A DNA stretch of 64,000 nucleotides, taken from IMG/VR virus record IMGVR_UViG_3300001525_000584, positions 153,630-217,629 of that record, one strand, 5' to 3'. The notes under the pieces were generated by a model, which did no database searches, had not been told where the DNA came from, and saw only the letters and a list, made by a program, of their open reading frames with translations. Position numbers and translations under genes: made by a program. Origin of the DNA: a virus (Duplodnaviria; Caudoviricetes). How positions within the stretch are numbered: the first letter of the stretch is position 1; each line of letters starts with the position of its first letter. Positions 46,793 to 54,865 of the stretch are shown in pieces.

Positions 46793-47539
46793 TTATCTCT
46801 GAACATCTAATAGTTTCTGTTCAAAATCCATAATAAAATTAGTATAAGATTCTTCAGTTAATTCTGGATAAACCTTTTCCAAATCTATAGTTCCGTTTCG
46901 GTCAGTGAAAAAGTCTATGTTCTGAATGACATCTAAAGCAAAAAGACATGTATCACAACTTCTGACTCTGCGATACACCTTTTTAGGCATGGTCAAAAGT
47001 TCTCCGAGTTGATACCAGCTACCTAAAAAATGAATCTCTTTATCACCTTCTTTAAAGATATCGTATAGAGAAGCTCTGCTACGTCCAGCAACCCAGTCAA
47101 AAGAACTCATGACCTTCGGGATACCAATAACATCAATCTCAGGCATACCATTTAGAGCATCAAAGCACTTTTTAAAAGCTTCTTGCGTAGTACCATGGCA
47201 AACAGCCATAAGTTTATAATCACCTAATCTATTATGATCTTTTAACCACTGAATAGCTTCTTTAGTAGATTTAATAGTTGCCTCCCCGTCCCTAAACACA
47301 TCCGGCAAAATAATCTCATCTGCTTTTATCTTATCTGCAGCAGCCATTAGTCGCTCCATAGATAAAGCACCACCGAGCTCGATAAGACTGTTATCCAAAA
47401 TTTTATAAGCCTCAGAATGCTCTAAAGCTAATTCGGCATACTGCGAATCTTTTTCAACCAGGTGTGTTAAAAGCATAACTATAGGTTCTTCATACATTAG
47501 ATGATAGGTGCCTTTTGGCATAATAGAACAAACATACAT
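46793..47539 (-). CDS. TGT-fold DpdA-like transglycosylase (putative 7-deazaguanine DNA insertion)
   Basis: ILDNS, ILPDV, MAVCHG, IHFLG, RSCDT motifs in TGT order; next to que genes. Confidence 0.6.
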   Translation of the reverse strand: MYVCSIMPKGTYHLMYEEPIVMLLTHLVEKDSQYAELALEHSEAYKILDNSLIELGGALSMERLMAAADKIKADEIILPDVFRDGEATIKSTKEAIQWLKDHNRLGDYKLMAVCHGTTQEAFKKCFDALNGMPEIDVIGIPKVMSSFDWVAGRSRASLYDIFKEGDKEIHFLGSWYQLGELLTMPKKVYRRVRSCDTCLFALDVIQNIDFFTDRNGTIDLEKVYPELTEESYTNFIMDFEQKLLDVQR

Positions 47540-48228: not shown

Positions 48229-48999
48229 TTAAGCAACCTGTGCAGCTTCATACTTCTTTAGTTTAGTTACTATTTTATAAGTTACTGGCGAAATAATAAT
48301 CTCATACACAGTTTTAATAGTTACCTGAATTAAAATGATGCAGAGCAGCTGCCAAAAGTTTTTAATAGTTTTTCCGAACTGATTTGTGAATAGATAAAGC
48401 AGCGGGATGAAAATCATGCTATCGATTAATTCGCCTGCAAAAGAGGATAAAATAGCTCTTAGGCAAAATTTACCTGCTTTATCATTATCTCCGGTTTTAG
48501 CAGTCCATTTACGGATAACTTCAAATACCAAATCATCGATCCAAGAACCCACACAAAATGCTAGCAAAGAGGCACATAGAATACCTAAAGAGCCCCAGTT
48601 ACCAGAAACAAAATCAAATCCAAAACCTGTTTCCAAACCTTTTCCTACAACATCCTGATAATAAGGATTTGCTCCAGGGATAATAATCGTCAAAATAATG
48701 ATAATATCTGTAAATAGGTTAAGTGCAAAACCTAGCCAGGTAACTCTTCTCGATGCACTATAACCATATACTTCACTCATAACATCTGAGATAATATATG
48801 TGATGGGAAAACAAAGTACGCCACAGGTTAATACGAGTTCAGCACCACCAATAGACCAACCAAAAACAGAAAAGGATTTACCTGCTGCGATATTAGAGGC
48901 AATAAGCGCTACAGAAGAGATCGCTACGAGTAAAACAAACATAGCTGATCCACCTTTTAGCTTTTCATCACCCCAAAGTAGAGACTTTAACTTCTTCAT
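48229..48999 (-). CDS. yhhQ: queuosine precursor transporter (YhhQ/VUT family)
   Basis: SNIAAGK, FPITYIISDVMSEVYG, ASLLAF, GELIDSMIF, K..YE motifs. Confidence 0.88.
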   Translation of the reverse strand: MKKLKSLLWGDEKLKGGSAMFVLLVAISSVALIASNIAAGKSFSVFGWSIGGAELVLTCGVLCFPITYIISDVMSEVYGYSASRRVTWLGFALNLFTDIIIILTIIIPGANPYYQDVVGKGLETGFGFDFVSGNWGSLGILCASLLAFCVGSWIDDLVFEVIRKWTAKTGDNDKAGKFCLRAILSSFAGELIDSMIFIPLLYLFTNQFGKTIKNFWQLLCIILIQVTIKTVYEIIISPVTYKIVTKLKKYEAAQVA

Positions 49000-49056
49000 T
49001 TAATACCTCTTTTAGTTTGTTATTTAGCGTCGCCATTAATAGAAACACACGACGAT
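49000..49056 (-). ncRNA. candidate pseudoknot riboswitch leader, copy B (transporter)
   Basis: CGUCGU-GUGUUUCUAUUAAUG-GCGACG, A-rich tail AAAUAACAAACUA, SD AGAGG. Confidence 0.6.
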
Positions 49057-49073
49057 ATATAAAGATACATTAA

Positions 49074-49868
49074 TCAGTTTTGAAAAATGCCGCCTTTGAA
49101 TTCAGTTGTCAAATTACCGTTCTTAGAACATGCACCTCTAAAACGTTCACAACCATGCACTACACCCTCTAATCTGACATATACATCTTCTGTGTCTGCA
49201 ATTCTTTGAATAGTGTGCCCGATATATTTTGTTAAATCTTCTTGCAGCCAAAATCTTCGTGAAGCCCAGTCTACAAAACGCTGCAACTTACTGATACCAA
49301 TTAGATATTTACCAGGCTTATAACTGATAATAGCTTTACCACCATCAAAGGTACTAAAAGGTAAAAAGTGATGTGAACAACAGGACACTACATCTACTTC
49401 TTTTGTGATAATATCGGTTTTACCGTCATTAGGGAAAAATGATACAAAAGGTTCCTTGCACCATCTGCCGCTGCCTAGTTCAGTCATATCATTAGGATCT
49501 GCCCCCACCCATATTTTAGCCAAGCGCCCCGGGGTCCCTTTTCCGAGGCTCTGCGCAGCTACATTCTCATCGGTCAAATCTACCTTCATAGCTTTAAAAG
49601 CTTCAGTAAGATAATACTGCGTTAAACTGCGCATAATCCAGTGCACTTCAGGCTTTACAGAATCGCTTTTAATGTATTCACATTCGCCTTCATCCAGAGC
49701 ATGTCGATCACTATAGTCTGTAGAGATCTCATGAATATTTTCACAGGCTTTAAAATCAGGTATTTGTAGATATAAATTAAAGTTCTCTTCAAAAGTATCT
49801 AAAGAGCCAAACTTTTTTTCATACATGTCCTTAATAAAAGACACAGCTTCTTCAGTGATATTAAACAT
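49074..49868 (-). CDS. folE: GTP cyclohydrolase I
   Basis: TPGRLAK, SCCSHHFLPF, GISKLQR, LQEDLT, HGC..RG motifs. Confidence 0.9.
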   Translation of the reverse strand: MFNITEEAVSFIKDMYEKKFGSLDTFEENFNLYLQIPDFKACENIHEISTDYSDRHALDEGECEYIKSDSVKPEVHWIMRSLTQYYLTEAFKAMKVDLTDENVAAQSLGKGTPGRLAKIWVGADPNDMTELGSGRWCKEPFVSFFPNDGKTDIITKEVDVVSCCSHHFLPFSTFDGGKAIISYKPGKYLIGISKLQRFVDWASRRFWLQEDLTKYIGHTIQRIADTEDVYVRLEGVVHGCERFRGACSKNGNLTTEFKGGIFQN

Positions 49869-49901
49869 ATATTATAACCTCTTTTCGTGTTCTACACTTA
49901 T

Positions 49902-51512
49902 TTAATCTACATACTCCCAGGTATAACCCCCGAGCATTTTATTTTTTCTACGGCCCGTGCAAATTCTACCCAGGGTATTTTTATTTATATTAAAGTGTGC
50001 TGCAGCATCCTTCTGAGAAGGAAAAATAATATTCAGCTCAATACATCTAACTCTCTTTTGATTTTTTAGAGTTGCTGGACGCTCTTCTAGACGCGGTTTG
50101 CCCACAAAAGCTTTCAACGCCTGTATCATTTCTTGATCTTTTATACGCGCCCAATGATATCCTCCTCCATAACCTCCTTTATGAGCTGCTGCGCTTATAC
50201 AACTCGCATTCATATGCAGTTGCTCCGCTGCTTCTGATGCAGAATTAAAAATTTGCTGCGTCTCTATGCATATAACCTGACTTAACTGTTTCTCTATCCG
50301 ATTCTGCTGAGCCTTTAAAGAGGCTTTTTTTGCAGAGGACAATGCGCATCTGGGTTTTCCTATAAAACTTTTTAAAGATTCTTGTTTCAAAGTATCATGC
50401 AAGAAAGCCCAGTGATAACCATCACAGGTTTCTACACGGCCAGTTAATGCACTACTAAGAGCTCCTGCAGACAGAGGAGGATTATGTGTCTGGCAGGCTT
50501 CTTTCGCAGATTTATAAACTCGCTGCGTTTCTATACATATTATGCTTTTACTACTACGATCACTCAGCGCTTTTCTATATTCTTCTGAATATACTCGACC
50601 TACAGCGGCTTTTTTCCGAGACTCTGATAGTCTTTTGCTGCGCTCTTCTTTAGATTCGGGGGGCTTTCCTACAAAATCTTGTAGTTGCTTTTGTAACTCC
50701 GCATCATCTAAATAGGCAAAATGATAACCCCTGAATCTCTCACCATCATAGAGGACATGTTGCAAACTGTTTTCAAGACAGTTCAAAGTCTGTGCACATT
50801 GTTTTATCGATGCAAAAGTTTGTTGTGTTTCTATGCAAATAATAGGGCGGGCGCGCAGCTCTTTTTGTAAATAAGGTGGTTTACCTATAAAAAAAGCTAA
50901 GGCCTTTATTTTCTCCGTATCACTACTATATGCAAAATGATACCCACGAGCCGTGGCCTTATAATTCAATAAAACTTCTCTTTGGAGTTTAGTACCAATA
51001 AAATGAGAAGCTTCTTTAACAGAATTAAAAACTTGCTGAGTTTCTATGCATATAACACTTTTAAATTCGCATGCCTTTGCTTGCTCATACATTTTTTGAT
51101 AGTTTTCCAGGCCGTTTTCCTTTATAAGTTGCTCTATCTGCTCTAAAGATCTTTTTTGTTTATTATTAGGGTCTCCACGAAGCTGCTTATCTAAGGCATT
51201 AAATAATCCTGGGAACAATACGTCTAAACAGCATCGGCATAAATAATAATGAACTTTGATATGGTCCTGAAAATATAAATTAATTTTAAAATTTTTTGGG
51301 TCGCCGTTAGCCTGTGCTAATGCTTCTTTTCTGGGTACTTCATAGGCCTTTTTATAATAACATACAGGTATAACATGATGGCGCTGTGTTCTACCGGGCT
51401 GATTTGCTAAGCCCTCATTAAGAGCTATGCAGGCGCAATATTTATCTAAAAATTCATTATCAATAAAATAATTCGTATCTAATAGAGTCTCTTTTATTGT
51501 AGAAGCTTCCAT
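49902..51512 (-). CDS. free-standing HNH homing endonuclease with 5 NUMOD1-like repeats
   Basis: RHHVIP...INL...DHIKVH; five (I/R)CIE repeats. Confidence 0.78.
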   Translation of the reverse strand: MEASTIKETLLDTNYFIDNEFLDKYCACIALNEGLANQPGRTQRHHVIPVCYYKKAYEVPRKEALAQANGDPKNFKINLYFQDHIKVHYYLCRCCLDVLFPGLFNALDKQLRGDPNNKQKRSLEQIEQLIKENGLENYQKMYEQAKACEFKSVICIETQQVFNSVKEASHFIGTKLQREVLLNYKATARGYHFAYSSDTEKIKALAFFIGKPPYLQKELRARPIICIETQQTFASIKQCAQTLNCLENSLQHVLYDGERFRGYHFAYLDDAELQKQLQDFVGKPPESKEERSKRLSESRKKAAVGRVYSEEYRKALSDRSSKSIICIETQRVYKSAKEACQTHNPPLSAGALSSALTGRVETCDGYHWAFLHDTLKQESLKSFIGKPRCALSSAKKASLKAQQNRIEKQLSQVICIETQQIFNSASEAAEQLHMNASCISAAAHKGGYGGGYHWARIKDQEMIQALKAFVGKPRLEERPATLKNQKRVRCIELNIIFPSQKDAAAHFNINKNTLGRICTGRRKNKMLGGYTWEYVD

Positions 51513-51547
51513 AAATAGCTAAAATCCCTTCTTCAAAAATTATAGGG

Positions 51548-51555
51548 AATTTAGC
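51548..51555 (-). promoter_or_regulatory. GCTAAATT promoter upstream of HNH gene
   Basis: Recurrent motif. Confidence 0.6.
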
Positions 51556-51598
51556 TATAATAACCGTGGGCTACACTCTTAAATCCGTACAAACATCA

Positions 51599-53200
51599 TT
51601 AAACATCCTTCTGATTAAAATCATAGAAGATTTTATGTGTTTGAATTTGTGCTCGTAAATTTGCTTCAGGATGCTCCTGAATAAACTCAGGTATTCTATG
51701 CATAGTTACATTATTAAAACAAGGACTTATATAAATAGGGGCTCTACTCTTTAATGTTATTAATCGCTCTAATTCAGCCCAGTCTCGAGGATCATCAGTC
51801 ATAACTACTTTAATAAGGTCAGAGCCTGATAAAATCTTTAAATTACTCTCCAGCATTTTTGAAGTCATATTACTTGCGGGCATTTTCCAATCCATTGCTA
51901 AATAAACGCCGCAGCGATGTCCTGTGATATCCTGATTATATGCATCTCCGAAGGCTTCTTTATAAGGTTCATAGTCTATAGTGCCGTTTGTCTCTATATC
52001 TACACTATATAAAGCCTTTACGAATAGAGGTATTAATTCTTTAATCATAAAAGTTTCATTTTCAGGCATTAGAGGTTCCCCGCCGGTTAGACATATGGAT
52101 TTTTGAGGCCAGTCTTTTTCTATAGATTCAACTTCATTAAAAATCTCCGCCGCAGTATACCACTTAACGGCATTTTCCAAAGTACCTCGCTCTGGATATA
52201 ACTGTAGAAGTTTCTCGAGTGTCCAACTTTCACGGGTATCACAATTATGTACTAAAATATTACTGCCTACGAGGCTGCTTTTTACATAATAGCTATGTGC
52301 ATCTGTTTCTATATTTATAACAGTGCTACCAAATCTTTTATTTGTTCTACGACGATGATTAGCAGTCACTTCAATTAACGTCTCATCATGCCTCTTACTA
52401 AAATTATTACCTCGTGCGTGCAGCTGATCATGAAGCTTCTTTGGGATCACCACTAAGTTATTTAAATCATCGTTATGGGGGTTTTTATCTATATGGTGCA
52501 CCACCAAATTTTTAGTTCCCCAAACCTCCGCAAAGGGATAATTCGTATGATCCATCTCTTGCAGACCATTTTTAGCATATGTAAAGTTCCGCGCGTCAAA
52601 GGCTTCTTTATACATGCCGTTTTTGGAATTAAAGTTATTACGATCCTGATGATTATTTACATATGTATCAACGGCAGCTTTAGTATAGTTTACCAGTTCA
52701 TCTCTATAGAGTTTCTCGACTAGATATCTTACTAATGTTGCATTAGTGGTTCTCTTTACATAATCACCTATGTTTATATCTTTGATGGCTTGCCAGCCCT
52801 TTGCTGTATAAAAAGGATGCTCACTAGTTACATTAAAATTATCTCGCAAAGTTTTGCCCAGAGATACTTTACGTATACTTGGAGGATCTACATCTCTTTT
52901 TAGAACATTCGTTACAGTAGTTACGTAGGGTTCATTATTTTCCGGGTTCAACGTCATGATTCGATCACCCACCCTGACATCAGACATGTTAAGAAGTTGC
53001 CCGTATGCATCCACCACATAAGGATAATGACCACTTTGATCAGGAGCAAAACACCACGGGCAGCGAGCATTACAGTACATAGTACGTACAAAAACGGTCT
53101 TAAAATTTTGTTCAGGGCCTTCACCTTGCACGGCTCTGAAAATATTAATCAGAGCAATTTCATGAGCCTGTTTTTCAACATTATACCGAATCATTCTCAA
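51599..53200 (-). CDS. queE: 7-carboxy-7-deazaguanine synthase, intein-containing
   Basis: IFRAVQGEG, FVR, CNARCPW|C, LTGGEP, IETNG, QTHK. Confidence 0.9.
   Translation of the reverse strand: MRMIRYNVEKQAHEIALINIFRAVQGEGPEQNFKTVFVRTMYCNARCPWCFAPDQSGHYPYVVDAYGQLLNMSDVRVGDRIMTLNPENNEPYVTTVTNVLKRDVDPPSIRKVSLGKTLRDNFNVTSEHPFYTAKGWQAIKDINIGDYVKRTTNATLVRYLVEKLYRDELVNYTKAAVDTYVNNHQDRNNFNSKNGMYKEAFDARNFTYAKNGLQEMDHTNYPFAEVWGTKNLVVHHIDKNPHNDDLNNLVVIPKKLHDQLHARGNNFSKRHDETLIEVTANHRRRTNKRFGSTVINIETDAHSYYVKSSLVGSNILVHNCDTRESWTLEKLLQLYPERGTLENAVKWYTAAEIFNEVESIEKDWPQKSICLTGGEPLMPENETFMIKELIPLFVKALYSVDIETNGTIDYEPYKEAFGDAYNQDITGHRCGVYLAMDWKMPASNMTSKMLESNLKILSGSDLIKVVMTDDPRDWAELERLITLKSRAPIYISPCFNNVTMHRIPEFIQEHPEANLRAQIQTHKIFYDFNQKDV
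52244..53053 (-). mobile_element. 270-aa intein with HNH endonuclease in QueE
   Basis: Starts CFAP; block B VTSEHPF; HHIDKN..N..NNL....H...H; ends ILVHN/C. Confidence 0.88.
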
Positions 53201-53697
53201 TTCTCCTCATAAGTAACACTATTATTAGAAGTTTCTTCTACAGTAACAGACATCTTTTCAACTGTCAAACCTTCATCACAAAATTTTTCCTTAAAGACAT
53301 GATACCAAATAAATGCCATATATTCAGCTGTAGGAGCTTCAGGCCAGATAAACACTCTAGAATCTTTTATATCAACGTTCCTATCTTTAAAACCTTTGAT
53401 ATAAAAATCAATAAGTTCATCCCCTTCTTTTAGGATAAGAGAATGATCATAAGGATCTAAGACTTCGTGAATGATTTTCTTTACTTTTTTAAAGTCCATA
53501 ACCATATAATCACCATCCGTGTTATTAGCTGAAACTTTAATAGTGATATTATAATTATGTCCATGAACACAACCAAAAGTATCTGCAGGATACATAACAG
53601 TACCGTTTTGAGATACGTTACCCACACAGAGCCCAGAATAGGCACTGGGCAGTCTGTGTGCGATGGGGAGCTCTATATGTGTGCTTAATGTAAACAT
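53197..53697 (-). CDS. queD: 6-carboxytetrahydropterin synthase
   Basis: AHRL, C, HGHNY, VMDF, DH, PTAE, VEET motifs. Confidence 0.9.
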   Translation of the reverse strand: MFTLSTHIELPIAHRLPSAYSGLCVGNVSQNGTVMYPADTFGCVHGHNYNITIKVSANNTDGDYMVMDFKKVKKIIHEVLDPYDHSLILKEGDELIDFYIKGFKDRNVDIKDSRVFIWPEAPTAEYMAFIWYHVFKEKFCDEGLTVEKMSVTVEETSNNSVTYEEN

Positions 53698-53715
53698 ATT
53701 AAACCCCTTTTCCTA

Positions 53716-54534
53716 TTAATCCAAATACTTCTGATAATAAGGATTTTGAATAAATTTTGTATAGAGCTCGTTATTAGTTTCTCTAAGGACTTCGAGAGCT
53801 TTTTTAGTTGCCGCAGCTACGTCGAGGCAAGTTGCGCAGTTTAAGCACTCCTCTGCTTCACCATTTTCATCGATAATAGGATCATAGCAACTGAAACACA
53901 TCTCATAAGGTACAGGCTTTTTCAGTTCCATACCACATTTAATAAGTTCCCATTTATGATTCTTTACAAAGGGTGCTTCATAATGTACATGTCCAACGGA
54001 GCTGATTCTTACGACTTCTTCGAAGGCTTTAGTGAATAGGGGCGAGCAATCGGGGTAACACGATTTGGTTTCATCCTGATGTTCCACACCATTTTCATCT
54101 ACATAATAGCACGAATCATCTGCGTGCTGACCGAGCATAATAGTTACATCATCATTAAACTGCTGCGAAATGCTTTCTGCACGAGCTGCTACATATGCAG
54201 AGAAAAGACCATTTCTAAAAGGTACATAGGTATCAACTTTGCCTTCTTTTTCGGCAAGAATTTCAGCATAGGTTTTTCCCTTCTGAATTTCTTTAGTAGA
54301 GCCCTTCAACATAGTACATGTAGAACCCTTAAAGATGGCTGGATCAATAGTAACAATCTGATAAGGAACACCATAATAGTCTGCAATCTTCTGGGCACTT
54401 TTCAGTTCCTGTGGATGAGTACTGCCATACTCAAAACCCATAGCATAAACATTTTCAGCGCCATAACGATCAACAGCCAGACCTAGACATGTTGCACTAT
54501 CTCTGCCACCACTTAAACTAACGATACACTTCAT
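53716..54534 (-). CDS. queC: 7-cyano-7-deazaguanine synthase
   Basis: SGGRDS, YVPFRN, YPDC, SCY...C..C..C motifs. Confidence 0.93.
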   Translation of the reverse strand: MKCIVSLSGGRDSATCLGLAVDRYGAENVYAMGFEYGSTHPQELKSAQKIADYYGVPYQIVTIDPAIFKGSTCTMLKGSTKEIQKGKTYAEILAEKEGKVDTYVPFRNGLFSAYVAARAESISQQFNDDVTIMLGQHADDSCYYVDENGVEHQDETKSCYPDCSPLFTKAFEEVVRISSVGHVHYEAPFVKNHKWELIKCGMELKKPVPYEMCFSCYDPIIDENGEAEECLNCATCLDVAAATKKALEVLRETNNELYTKFIQNPYYQKYLD

Positions 54535-54597
54535 TTTAAAATTCTCCTTTTATAGTTTGCTTATTTATAGTCGCGATTAATAAGGACACACGACTCA
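54535..54597 (-). ncRNA. candidate pseudoknot riboswitch leader, copy A (queC)
   Basis: AGUCGUG-UGUCCUUAUUAAU-CGCGACU, tail AAAUAAGCAAACUA, SD AAGGAG. Confidence 0.6.
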
Positions 54598-54605
54598 TAA
54601 TTATA

Positions 54606-54613
54606 TATACAAT
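54606..54613 (-). promoter_or_regulatory. ATTGTATA motif, putative early/middle promoter
   Basis: Recurrent intergenic motif; 10 nt upstream of the leader stem. Confidence 0.55.
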
Positions 54614-54616
54614 AGA

Positions 54617-54865
54617 TCATTTTAATTTTTTATGATCCCTGTATTCTTTAATTAACCAAAATATATTTAATAGTAGCCCGCAGACATTTGTAACCCCTGT
54701 TGCATAAGCATTGGTGCATACAAATCCATATATAATGAAAAGTAAACTGCCTAAAGCATTAATCGTTCTCATTAACATGGTACCTTTATATGTGGTGGTT
54801 TTGAATGTCATAGAGGCTACTATAAATATAGAGGATAATATACCTATTATCTCTTTAATAGGCAT
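54617..54865 (-). CDS. small membrane protein (YgjV-like, 3 TM)
   Basis: IIGILSSIFIVASM...MRTINALGSLLFIIYG. Confidence 0.6.
   Translation of the reverse strand: MPIKEIIGILSSIFIVASMTFKTTTYKGTMLMRTINALGSLLFIIYGFVCTNAYATGVTNVCGLLLNIFWLIKEYRDHKKLK

Follow-up and report, generated by a model that had tools for sequence, protein, structure and literature searches.

The window analyzed here comprises the final 64 kb (64,000 nucleotides) of a 217.6-kb gut phage record from IMG/VR (IMGVR_UViG_3300001525_000584; Caudoviricetes) with direct terminal repeats. On its minus strand, it codes for a run of queuosine-precursor genes in the order queC–queD/PTPS–queE (interrupted by an intein)–homing endonuclease–folE, with Pfam matches to the QueC, PTPS, Radical_SAM and GTP_cyclohydroI families. 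A 74-nt gap separates folE from yhhQ, which codes for a queuosine-precursor (preQ0/preQ1) transporter and is followed by a dCTP-deaminase-like gene. Two related leaders, one ahead of queC, the first gene of the operon, and the other ahead of yhhQ, each combine a hairpin, an A-rich tail and a ribosome-binding site (Table 1). Comparison with the corresponding leaders of related phages leads us to interpret them as a phage-borne structural variant of the preQ1-I riboswitch that has previously gone unannotated.

Table 1. Coordinates of the two leaders, their elements and the neighboring genes, by position in the window (P1, hairpin stem; P2, proposed pairing of the loop with the Shine–Dalgarno (SD) sequence; L3, linker between P1 and P2; ORF, open reading frame; R2, family model described in the text)
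Feature	Position	Strand	Details
82-aa ORF	54617-54865	-	hydrophobic; stops ~20 nt ahead of the queC promoter-like box
ATTGTATA, promoter-like box	54606..54613	-	10 nt ahead of the queC hairpin; looks like a TG-extended -10
queC leader	54540-54595	-	27-nt hairpin, A-rich tail and ribosome-binding site
queC leader hairpin	54569..54595	-	P1 of 7 bp, AGUCGUG (54595-54589) with CGCGACU (54575-54569); R2 58.9 bits
queC loop UGUCCUUAUUAAU	54588-54576	-	13 nt
queC loop pyrimidine tract UCCUU	54582..54586	-	proposed 5' strand of P2 (anti-SD); complementary to AAGGA 54549-54545
queC A-rich linker L3 AUAAAUAAGCAAACUAUAAAA	54548..54568	-	CUA at 54555-54553
AAGGAG, queC SD	54544..54549	-	proposed 3' strand of P2
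queC	53716..54534	-	272 aa; ATG 54534-54532; Pfam QueC (PF06508) 1.5e-34
queE	51599-53200	-	HINT and HNH domains within the radical-SAM region (intein)
I-HmuI/NUMOD endonuclease ORF	49902-51512	-	between queE and folE
AATGTATC, promoter-like box	49064..49071	-	9 nt ahead of the yhhQ hairpin
yhhQ leader	49005-49054	-	27-nt hairpin, A-rich tail and ribosome-binding site
yhhQ leader hairpin	49028..49054	-	P1 GUCGU (49053-49049) with GCGAC (49033-49029); R2 59.8 bits
yhhQ loop UGUUUCUAUUAAU	49047-49035	-	13 nt
yhhQ loop tract UUUCU	49041..49045	-	proposed anti-SD; with AGAGG 49010-49006, 3 Watson–Crick and 2 G-U pairs
yhhQ A-rich linker ..CUAAAUAACAAACUAAAAG	49006..49027	-	CUA 49015-49013, then SD-like AGAGG 49010-49006
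yhhQ, queuosine-precursor (preQ0/preQ1) transporter	48229..48999	-	256 aa; ATG 48999-48997; Pfam Vut_1 4.3e-34; NCBIfam TIGR00697 67.1 bits (cut-off 51)
248-aa ORF	46793-47539	-	matches phrog_20335 only; no Pfam, NCBIfam or PDB match

The sequences of both leaders and the coordinates and 27-nt extent of their hairpins are exactly as an earlier sequence-only reading of the window had claimed. The top of the stem is a G-C pair in the queC hairpin versus a G-G mismatch (49048/49034) in that of yhhQ. The tails, AUAAAUAAGCAAACUAUAAAAGGAG in queC (with the ATG then at 54534) and ..UAAAUAACAAACUAAAAGAGG in yhhQ (ATG then at 48999), both contain UAAAUAA and AAACUA ahead of AAAAGGAG or AAAGAGG, after which comes the start codon; in each, an A-rich L3 with a conserved C (…ACUA) adjoins the SD (AUAAAUAAGCAAACUA in queC and ..UAAAUAACAAACUA in yhhQ). 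A repeat finder paired the two leaders over 34 nt, and the pattern GTCGTGTGTNNNTATTAATNGCGAC has just two sites in the whole 217.6-kb genome, namely these leaders. Two lone genomic copies, AT-rich and 82% identical, could stem from chance resemblance or a recent functionless local duplication. That explanation is hardly credible given the related leaders at orthologous positions in many phages and their compensatory changes in P1; indeed, the comparative data effectively refute chance resemblance.

We assembled 18 distinct leaders, drawing on the contigs of YhhQ relatives, which come for the most part from Logan/ENA assemblies of gut and rumen, and on loci in IMG/VR, JGI and GTDB. All are on uncultured phage contigs, and each is directly ahead of yhhQ, queC or, in L003, queF-queC-folE; the order of the que genes varies between phages. 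In a large protein collection, ~70 YhhQ sequences reach an identity of ≥50%. Among 50,697 phage records, megablast of the region gave no match and tblastn of YhhQ recovered relatives at ≤36% identity only, and protein-anchored scans of IMG/VR and JGI metagenomes yielded few relatives; overall, relatives are scarce among cultured phages and in IMG/VR. An exact-pattern hairpin scan of IMG/VR returned nothing; the 113 matches to a tail-based pattern were essentially all AT-rich chance and were set aside, a group-specific pattern found one true new member, L239, among 20 matches, and another pattern gave three false ones. A first model (R1), which used the two window copies, proved too narrow; ten leaders went into a second (R2). 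R2 recovered the held-out members L139 (38.7 bits), L135 (28 bits), L003 (22.2 bits) and the L151 yhhQ leader (21 bits). It found only the two window leaders in their own genome, nothing else in four related phage genomes, and terminator-like false positives only in 5 + 151 bacterial genomes, the 151 being genomes from the class of G007 (the L170 Clostridiales metagenome-assembled genome). The leader of L172, from an 'Eggerthellaceae' metagenome-assembled genome, is surrounded by a phage-type module that includes MazG and DUF3310. The hosts are probably Clostridia-type, judging from the nearest bacterial YhhQ relatives.

In close relatives, the hairpin, loop and SD are unchanged and substitutions are confined to the linker; the tail of L228 differs at three positions, all outside UAAAUAA, AAACUA and AAAAGG. 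Across the whole family, CUA is invariant (18/18 leaders), with (A)AGG following 1–5 nt later. The yhhQ leader has decayed in L145 (298-342), as in L146 and L147, where the A-rich tail AUAAAAUAAAAACUAGAGGAG remains behind an upstream ORF and no P1 partner was found. On the bacterial contigs L140–L142, which carry an IS110 transposase, a yhhQ-queF-acetyltransferase operon codes for a YhhQ with 61% identity to that of the phage; upstream of this operon, we found neither the leader motif nor an obvious preQ1-I element.

Comparison with relatives supports P1 well. On an alignment of 13 sequences that had been fitted to the model, 92% of the P1 cells are paired versus 65% in shuffles, and both bases change in five of the seven pairs. 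For covariation, P1 scores 0.755 versus 0.23, with none of 500 shuffles scoring as high and slid controls at ≤0.15. A G ends the P1 5' strand in the window leaders and most relatives, the yhhQ copy having its G-G there. The length of P1 ranges from 5 to 8 bp and is loosely correlated with that of the linker (Spearman 0.48, p = 0.04, with no correction for relatedness), which is what an A-rich strand running along the P1 minor groove would require. The sequence-only reading had also seen covariation in the closing pair, A-U in queC versus C-G in yhhQ; this does not hold, as the outer yhhQ pair (C-G, 49054/49028) is C...A in ten contigs of close relatives and is thus not maintained.

A second line of evidence is that the same module is joined to different expression platforms. 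In the queC leaders of L136, L143, L148 and L151, the conserved AAGG is not an SD and is followed by a strong intrinsic terminator. The same four leaders have a nascent antiterminator, whose 5' strand starts in the conserved (A)AGG and whose 3' strand overlaps the terminator, so that AAGG sequestered in P2 would favor termination. One aptamer-like module with two expression platforms is a hallmark of riboswitches and argues for a sensor over a passive hairpin. Both leader types occur within single phages, at 1443-1498 and 2342-2450 of L136 and at 109-190 and 1437-1489 of L151; in these, the queC leader is of the terminator type with a UC or AC loop end, and the yhhQ leader is of the SD-masking type with an AU loop end. 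Homologs with a covarying P1, and terminator platforms in some of them, thus bear out the earlier proposal of structured cis-regulatory leaders tied to queuosine-precursor genes. In the queC leader of L143 (2364-2422), the P1 3' strand is immediately followed by a further small hairpin, CGGAGAAAUCCG, in the same place as the additional helix of class II and III preQ1 riboswitches.

A pairing P2 between the loop and the SD is plausible but statistically weak. Nearly all loops have one CC in a pyrimidine tract able to pair with AAGG/GGAG, and complementary loop–tail tracts of 4–7 bp are present in 15 of the 18 leaders. Against shuffled loops, the best family members reach p = 0.02–0.05, and Fisher's method gives a combined p of 0.011 on non-independent sequences. 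The loop itself is 13 nt long in the window and 12–17 nt across the family, compared with ~9–12 nt in preQ1-I. As the MAFFT alignment was inconsistent across subgroups, the P2 and loop comparisons were made by hand in scripts instead. Alternative pairings of the loop with the tail (UUAUU with AAUAA, UGU with GCA or ACA, and a B. subtilis-like UAG with CUA) were each found in some members only and were rejected.

We favor the view that the two leaders represent an expanded, phage-specific form of the preQ1-I lineage and act as translational OFF riboswitches that would sense preQ0 or preQ1, and assign it a probability of roughly 0.55. Transcription would start a few nucleotides ahead of P1, whose 6–7 bp would form first. 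An abundant 7-deazaguanine precursor, most likely preQ0 (the end product of FolE–QueD–QueE–QueC and a substrate of YhhQ) or else preQ1, would then stabilize an H-type pseudoknot, in which the loop tract UCCUU or UUUCU pairs with the AAGG or AGAGG of the ribosome-binding site and the long A-rich linker lies in the P1 minor groove. With the SD hidden, translation of queC and of the transporter would drop, and probably also that of the rest of the queC operon. The data show the two elements with their gene context, a conserved family confined to que genes, the covariation of P1 and, in relatives, terminator/antiterminator platforms built on the same AAGG; in this scheme, we infer the pseudoknot P2, the ligand and the direction of regulation.

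Several observations weigh against this reading. First, no Rfam 15 model reaches its gathering threshold in the window, and the PreQ1 (RF00522), preQ1-II and PreQ1-III models give no match even at E ≤ 10 on 200-nt slices. Second, the window loops end in AAU and have no cytosine in L2, which in the queC loop is the 6-nt AUUAAU. Third, the yhhQ copy has G-G in place of the G-C pair that forms the floor of the pocket. Fourth, the UCCUU:AAGGA and UUUCU:AGAGG pairings noted in the sequence-only reading do exist, but its claim that the loop tracks the SD stands on weak statistics: against composition-preserving shuffles of the loop, neither queC (p = 0.08) nor yhhQ (p = 0.6) is significant, and a loop pairs hardly better with its own tail than with those of other members (-4.8 versus -4.4 kcal/mol; 14 members). 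Neither of the covariation arguments made from the two copies alone, on the closing pair and on the loop bases, holds up. Fifth, the P1 counts come from an alignment fitted to the model. Finally, the single-sequence folding z-scores of -0.55 and -0.36 are unremarkable; as the hairpins alone are not exceptional, the evidence rests on comparison with relatives.

According to the sequence-only reading, a strong match to an existing Rfam model would remove the novelty; none of the preQ1-I, -II, -III and SAM-II models reaches its threshold. The PreQ1 model is insensitive for this tiny motif, since the textbook-looking bacterial yhhQ preQ1-I leaders L166, L167 and L168, taken as a control, score only 19–25.5 bits against its gathering score of 39 bits; the relative L003 gets 13.5 bits with the same model, aligned with two small insertions. 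The preQ1-II model gives L006 21 bits versus a gathering score of 47 and has no match on the window. As the leaders fail every Rfam model, 'variant' is the apt term, and because Rfam does not score them, standard annotation overlooks them. At E ≤ 10, the matches are sub-threshold noise, and the only riboswitch model among them is SAM_alpha (RF00521), with 19.7 bits on the window yhhQ leader and 19.3 bits on that of L136, and it is also the only one to touch two members. The family might on this basis represent a SAM-II/SAM-V-like pseudoknot that senses S-adenosylmethionine (SAM), which would link the pathway to QueE, a radical-SAM enzyme. The alignments cover P1 and the tail UAAAnAAg...CUAAAg.AGG, of which the shared part is a generic A-rich tail. 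Both scores are far under the gathering threshold of 36, the queC leader has no such match, the context is of queuosine-precursor rather than methionine/SAM genes, and the intermediates connect the family to preQ1-I and not to SAM-II, all of which makes SAM sensing very unlikely.

The ends of the loops bear directly on ligand recognition. The three known types of preQ1-I all pair their ligand with a cytosine that immediately precedes the P1 3' strand (PMC11625349). The lineage is marked by a G closing P1, a U or UU next, and this cytosine in a Watson–Crick pair with the ligand (PMC11625349, PMC10622847); the cytosine is preceded by U in type I and by A in types II and III (PMC11625349, PMC10622847). 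Within the family, loops ending in UC are seen in L003, L006, L155, L160, L239 and L136 queC, and loops ending in AC in L139, L148 queC, L151 queC and L172. The loops of five leaders, namely the window queC and yhhQ leaders and the yhhQ leaders of L136, L144 and L151, end in AU. Since the window copies lack the ligand-pairing cytosine, even their binding of preQ0 or preQ1 is something that we infer.

The fold and lineage could accordingly be retained with altered ligand recognition, be it through another binding mode, a deliberately weaker affinity or another 7-deazapurine or purine as the ligand. The AU end recurs in five independent leaders versus UC or AC in sister leaders, and the pairing in L136 and L151 of a C-type terminator queC leader with a U-type SD yhhQ leader suggests two differently tuned sensors. 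Further, with no QueF, preQ1 is not the phage's own product. In purine riboswitches and mutant preQ1-I, new specificity classically arises by a C-to-U change at the pairing position. Uridine is the specificity base of preQ1 classes II and III (PMC11602147). Against this, the register at the top of P1 is ambiguous, the AU subgroup comprises few leaders, which are related to one another, and the known natural 7-deazaguanine intermediates all present a guanine-like face, which leaves no obvious alternative ligand; altered recognition therefore appears rather unlikely. As a tentative possibility at low confidence, the AU subgroup (no specificity cytosine, a 7-bp P1 and a ~20-nt linker) may be a distinct phage-evolved subtype with a new binding mode or selectivity. 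If so, it could be a low-affinity preQ0 sensor suited to a very high precursor flux for genome modification, or could sense a different 7-deazapurine; in L136 and L151, it would do so beside a canonical C-type sensor.

The missing cytosine, the G-G mismatch of the yhhQ copy and the statistically weak P2 would also fit a ligand-independent element, i.e., a preQ1-I relic or the operator of a phage RNA-binding protein, which partly masks the SD and so keeps the level or timing of translation fixed or under protein control. In L145–L147, the decay of the hairpin with retention of the tail and SD implies that its loss is tolerated. Such an element is nonetheless rather unlikely: phages with YhhQ proteins of only 76–79% identity retain both the hairpin and the loop, the elements occur at que genes only and not in other phage operons (with R2 finding two copies in the phage's own genome), the terminator/antiterminator switches of the relatives need a sensor, and no candidate RNA-binding protein is linked to them.

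Returning to a preQ1-I-type sensor, gene context is the sole pointer to its ligand and makes it probably preQ0 or preQ1. The sequence-only reading had noted the lack of queF in the window, and our search found no QueF in the window or elsewhere in the 217.6-kb genome. A phage pathway without QueF would end at preQ0 or a derivative, and a preQ0-specific ligand is therefore possible. There is likewise no Pfam match to TGT/DpdA (PF01702) anywhere in the 217.6-kb phage. The 248-aa ORF behind the dCTP-deaminase-like gene holds the syntenic position in L135, L144 and L228; it could be a candidate for the missing base-exchange enzyme.

Promoter-like boxes lie 9–10 nt ahead of both leaders, as previously claimed, and comparable boxes are found 7–9 nt ahead of the leaders in L003, L136 queC and L151 queC. 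The box motif is weakly enriched in the window (12 versus 6.7 expected), and a sigma-70 scan found no -35/-10 pair at either leader. Among the neighboring genes, the QueE of the close relative L228 is an uninterrupted 261-aa protein with folE directly after it, from which we take the intein and the homing endonuclease of the window to be recent insertions. Small ORFs similar to the hydrophobic 82-aa one upstream of queC lie between yhhQ and queC in L006 (with a weak Imp-YgjV match of 22 bits), L139 and L145, which points to a small membrane protein that is conserved in association with que genes.

Riboswitches are rare in phage genomes, and a 2017 survey gave c-di-GMP-I and glutamine examples only (PMC5473149). 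In the literature library searched, no paper describes a fourth preQ1 class, a preQ0 riboswitch, preQ1-I-like variants or phage preQ1 riboswitches. Uncultured gut and rumen phages appear to place queC/D/E, folE and sometimes queF, along with the importer, under RNA sensors derived from the host-type preQ1-I. This would imply phage feedback control over a pool of DNA-hypermodification precursors that competes with GTP. The natural series from near-canonical to cytosine-less forms could also serve as a test bed for the expansion, and perhaps the change in specificity, of the smallest riboswitch fold.

Of the known systems, SAM-II (RF00521) shares the H-type pseudoknot proposed here and a similar A-rich tail, with 19–20 bits on two members; it differs in these sub-threshold scores, in the gene context and in its conserved loop–tail helix, which has no counterpart here. 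With preQ1-II (RF01054), the family would share an SD wholly buried in a pseudoknot helix with a pyrimidine tract of the hairpin loop, and the uridine as specificity base would match the AU end. However, preQ1-II depends on an embedded P4 hairpin, from which two adenines enter the pocket, and on a U-rich J2-3 engaged in U-A-U triples (PMC11602147). In each window leader, the linker is A-rich and has no hairpin and no U-rich J2-3. The gene under class II control is queT, in Bacillota (Streptococcaceae and relatives).

The likeness to types I and II of preQ1-I (RF00522; Carnobacterium, Thermoanaerobacter and B. subtilis queC) is closer, and includes the proposed H-type pseudoknot plan, the A-rich L3 with ACUA at its end beside the SD and the association with queC operons. 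The queC leaders of L136, L143, L148 and L151 have a terminator/antiterminator like the B. subtilis preQ1-I element, and L003 and L136 queC have 12–15-nt UU...UC loops, as in type I. L003 is near-canonical preQ1-I, with the loop UUCGAACUCAAAAUC and the tail AAUAAAUUAAAACUAAAGGAG. When the P1 of L136 queC is read as GGACGU/AUGUCC, it leaves a 12-nt UU...UC loop, and by manual count the loop UUUGUAUCCUUC matches the Rfam type I consensus UUCGuAAaCcUC at 7–8 of 12 positions. Canonical preQ1-I is present at more distant yhhQ genes of bacteria. Compared to types I and II, the P1 and L3 of the window leaders are longer, their loop sequence is different and there is no UC or AC before the P1 3' strand.

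The nearest counterpart is type III, in which a pyrimidine-rich loop pairs with AAGG behind a poly-A run and a variable A-rich linker for the control of yhhQ (PMC10622847, PMC11625349). It differs from the family in its P1 (4–5 versus 6–7 bp), its loop (~9 versus 13–16 nt) and its L2, which is N-A-C where the family has 6–9 nt and the window copies end in AU rather than AC. The family is also set apart by its invariant CUA in the linker, by its occurrence in phages of probable Clostridia-type hosts rather than in Pseudomonadota, and by being missed by RF00522. Thus, the earlier proposal of a new preQ1-like riboswitch variant stands insofar as the leaders fail the Rfam models and resemble preQ1-I, but they do not make up a categorically new class, since intermediates, among them the near-canonical L003 and L136 queC, link the window form to types I and III. 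What the family shares with type III of E. coli and gamma-proteobacterial yhhQ (PDB 8fza; PMC10622847) is a small hairpin with a G atop the P1 5' strand and then a U, a loop CCU that pairs with the AGG of an AAGG SD (as proposed for UGUCCUU with AAGG in the window queC leader), 4–5 adenines directly ahead of AAGG and, between P1 and the SD, an A-rich linker whose length varies. Type III controls yhhQ translation, and the same is proposed for one window leader. Overall, the phage leaders come closest to type III.

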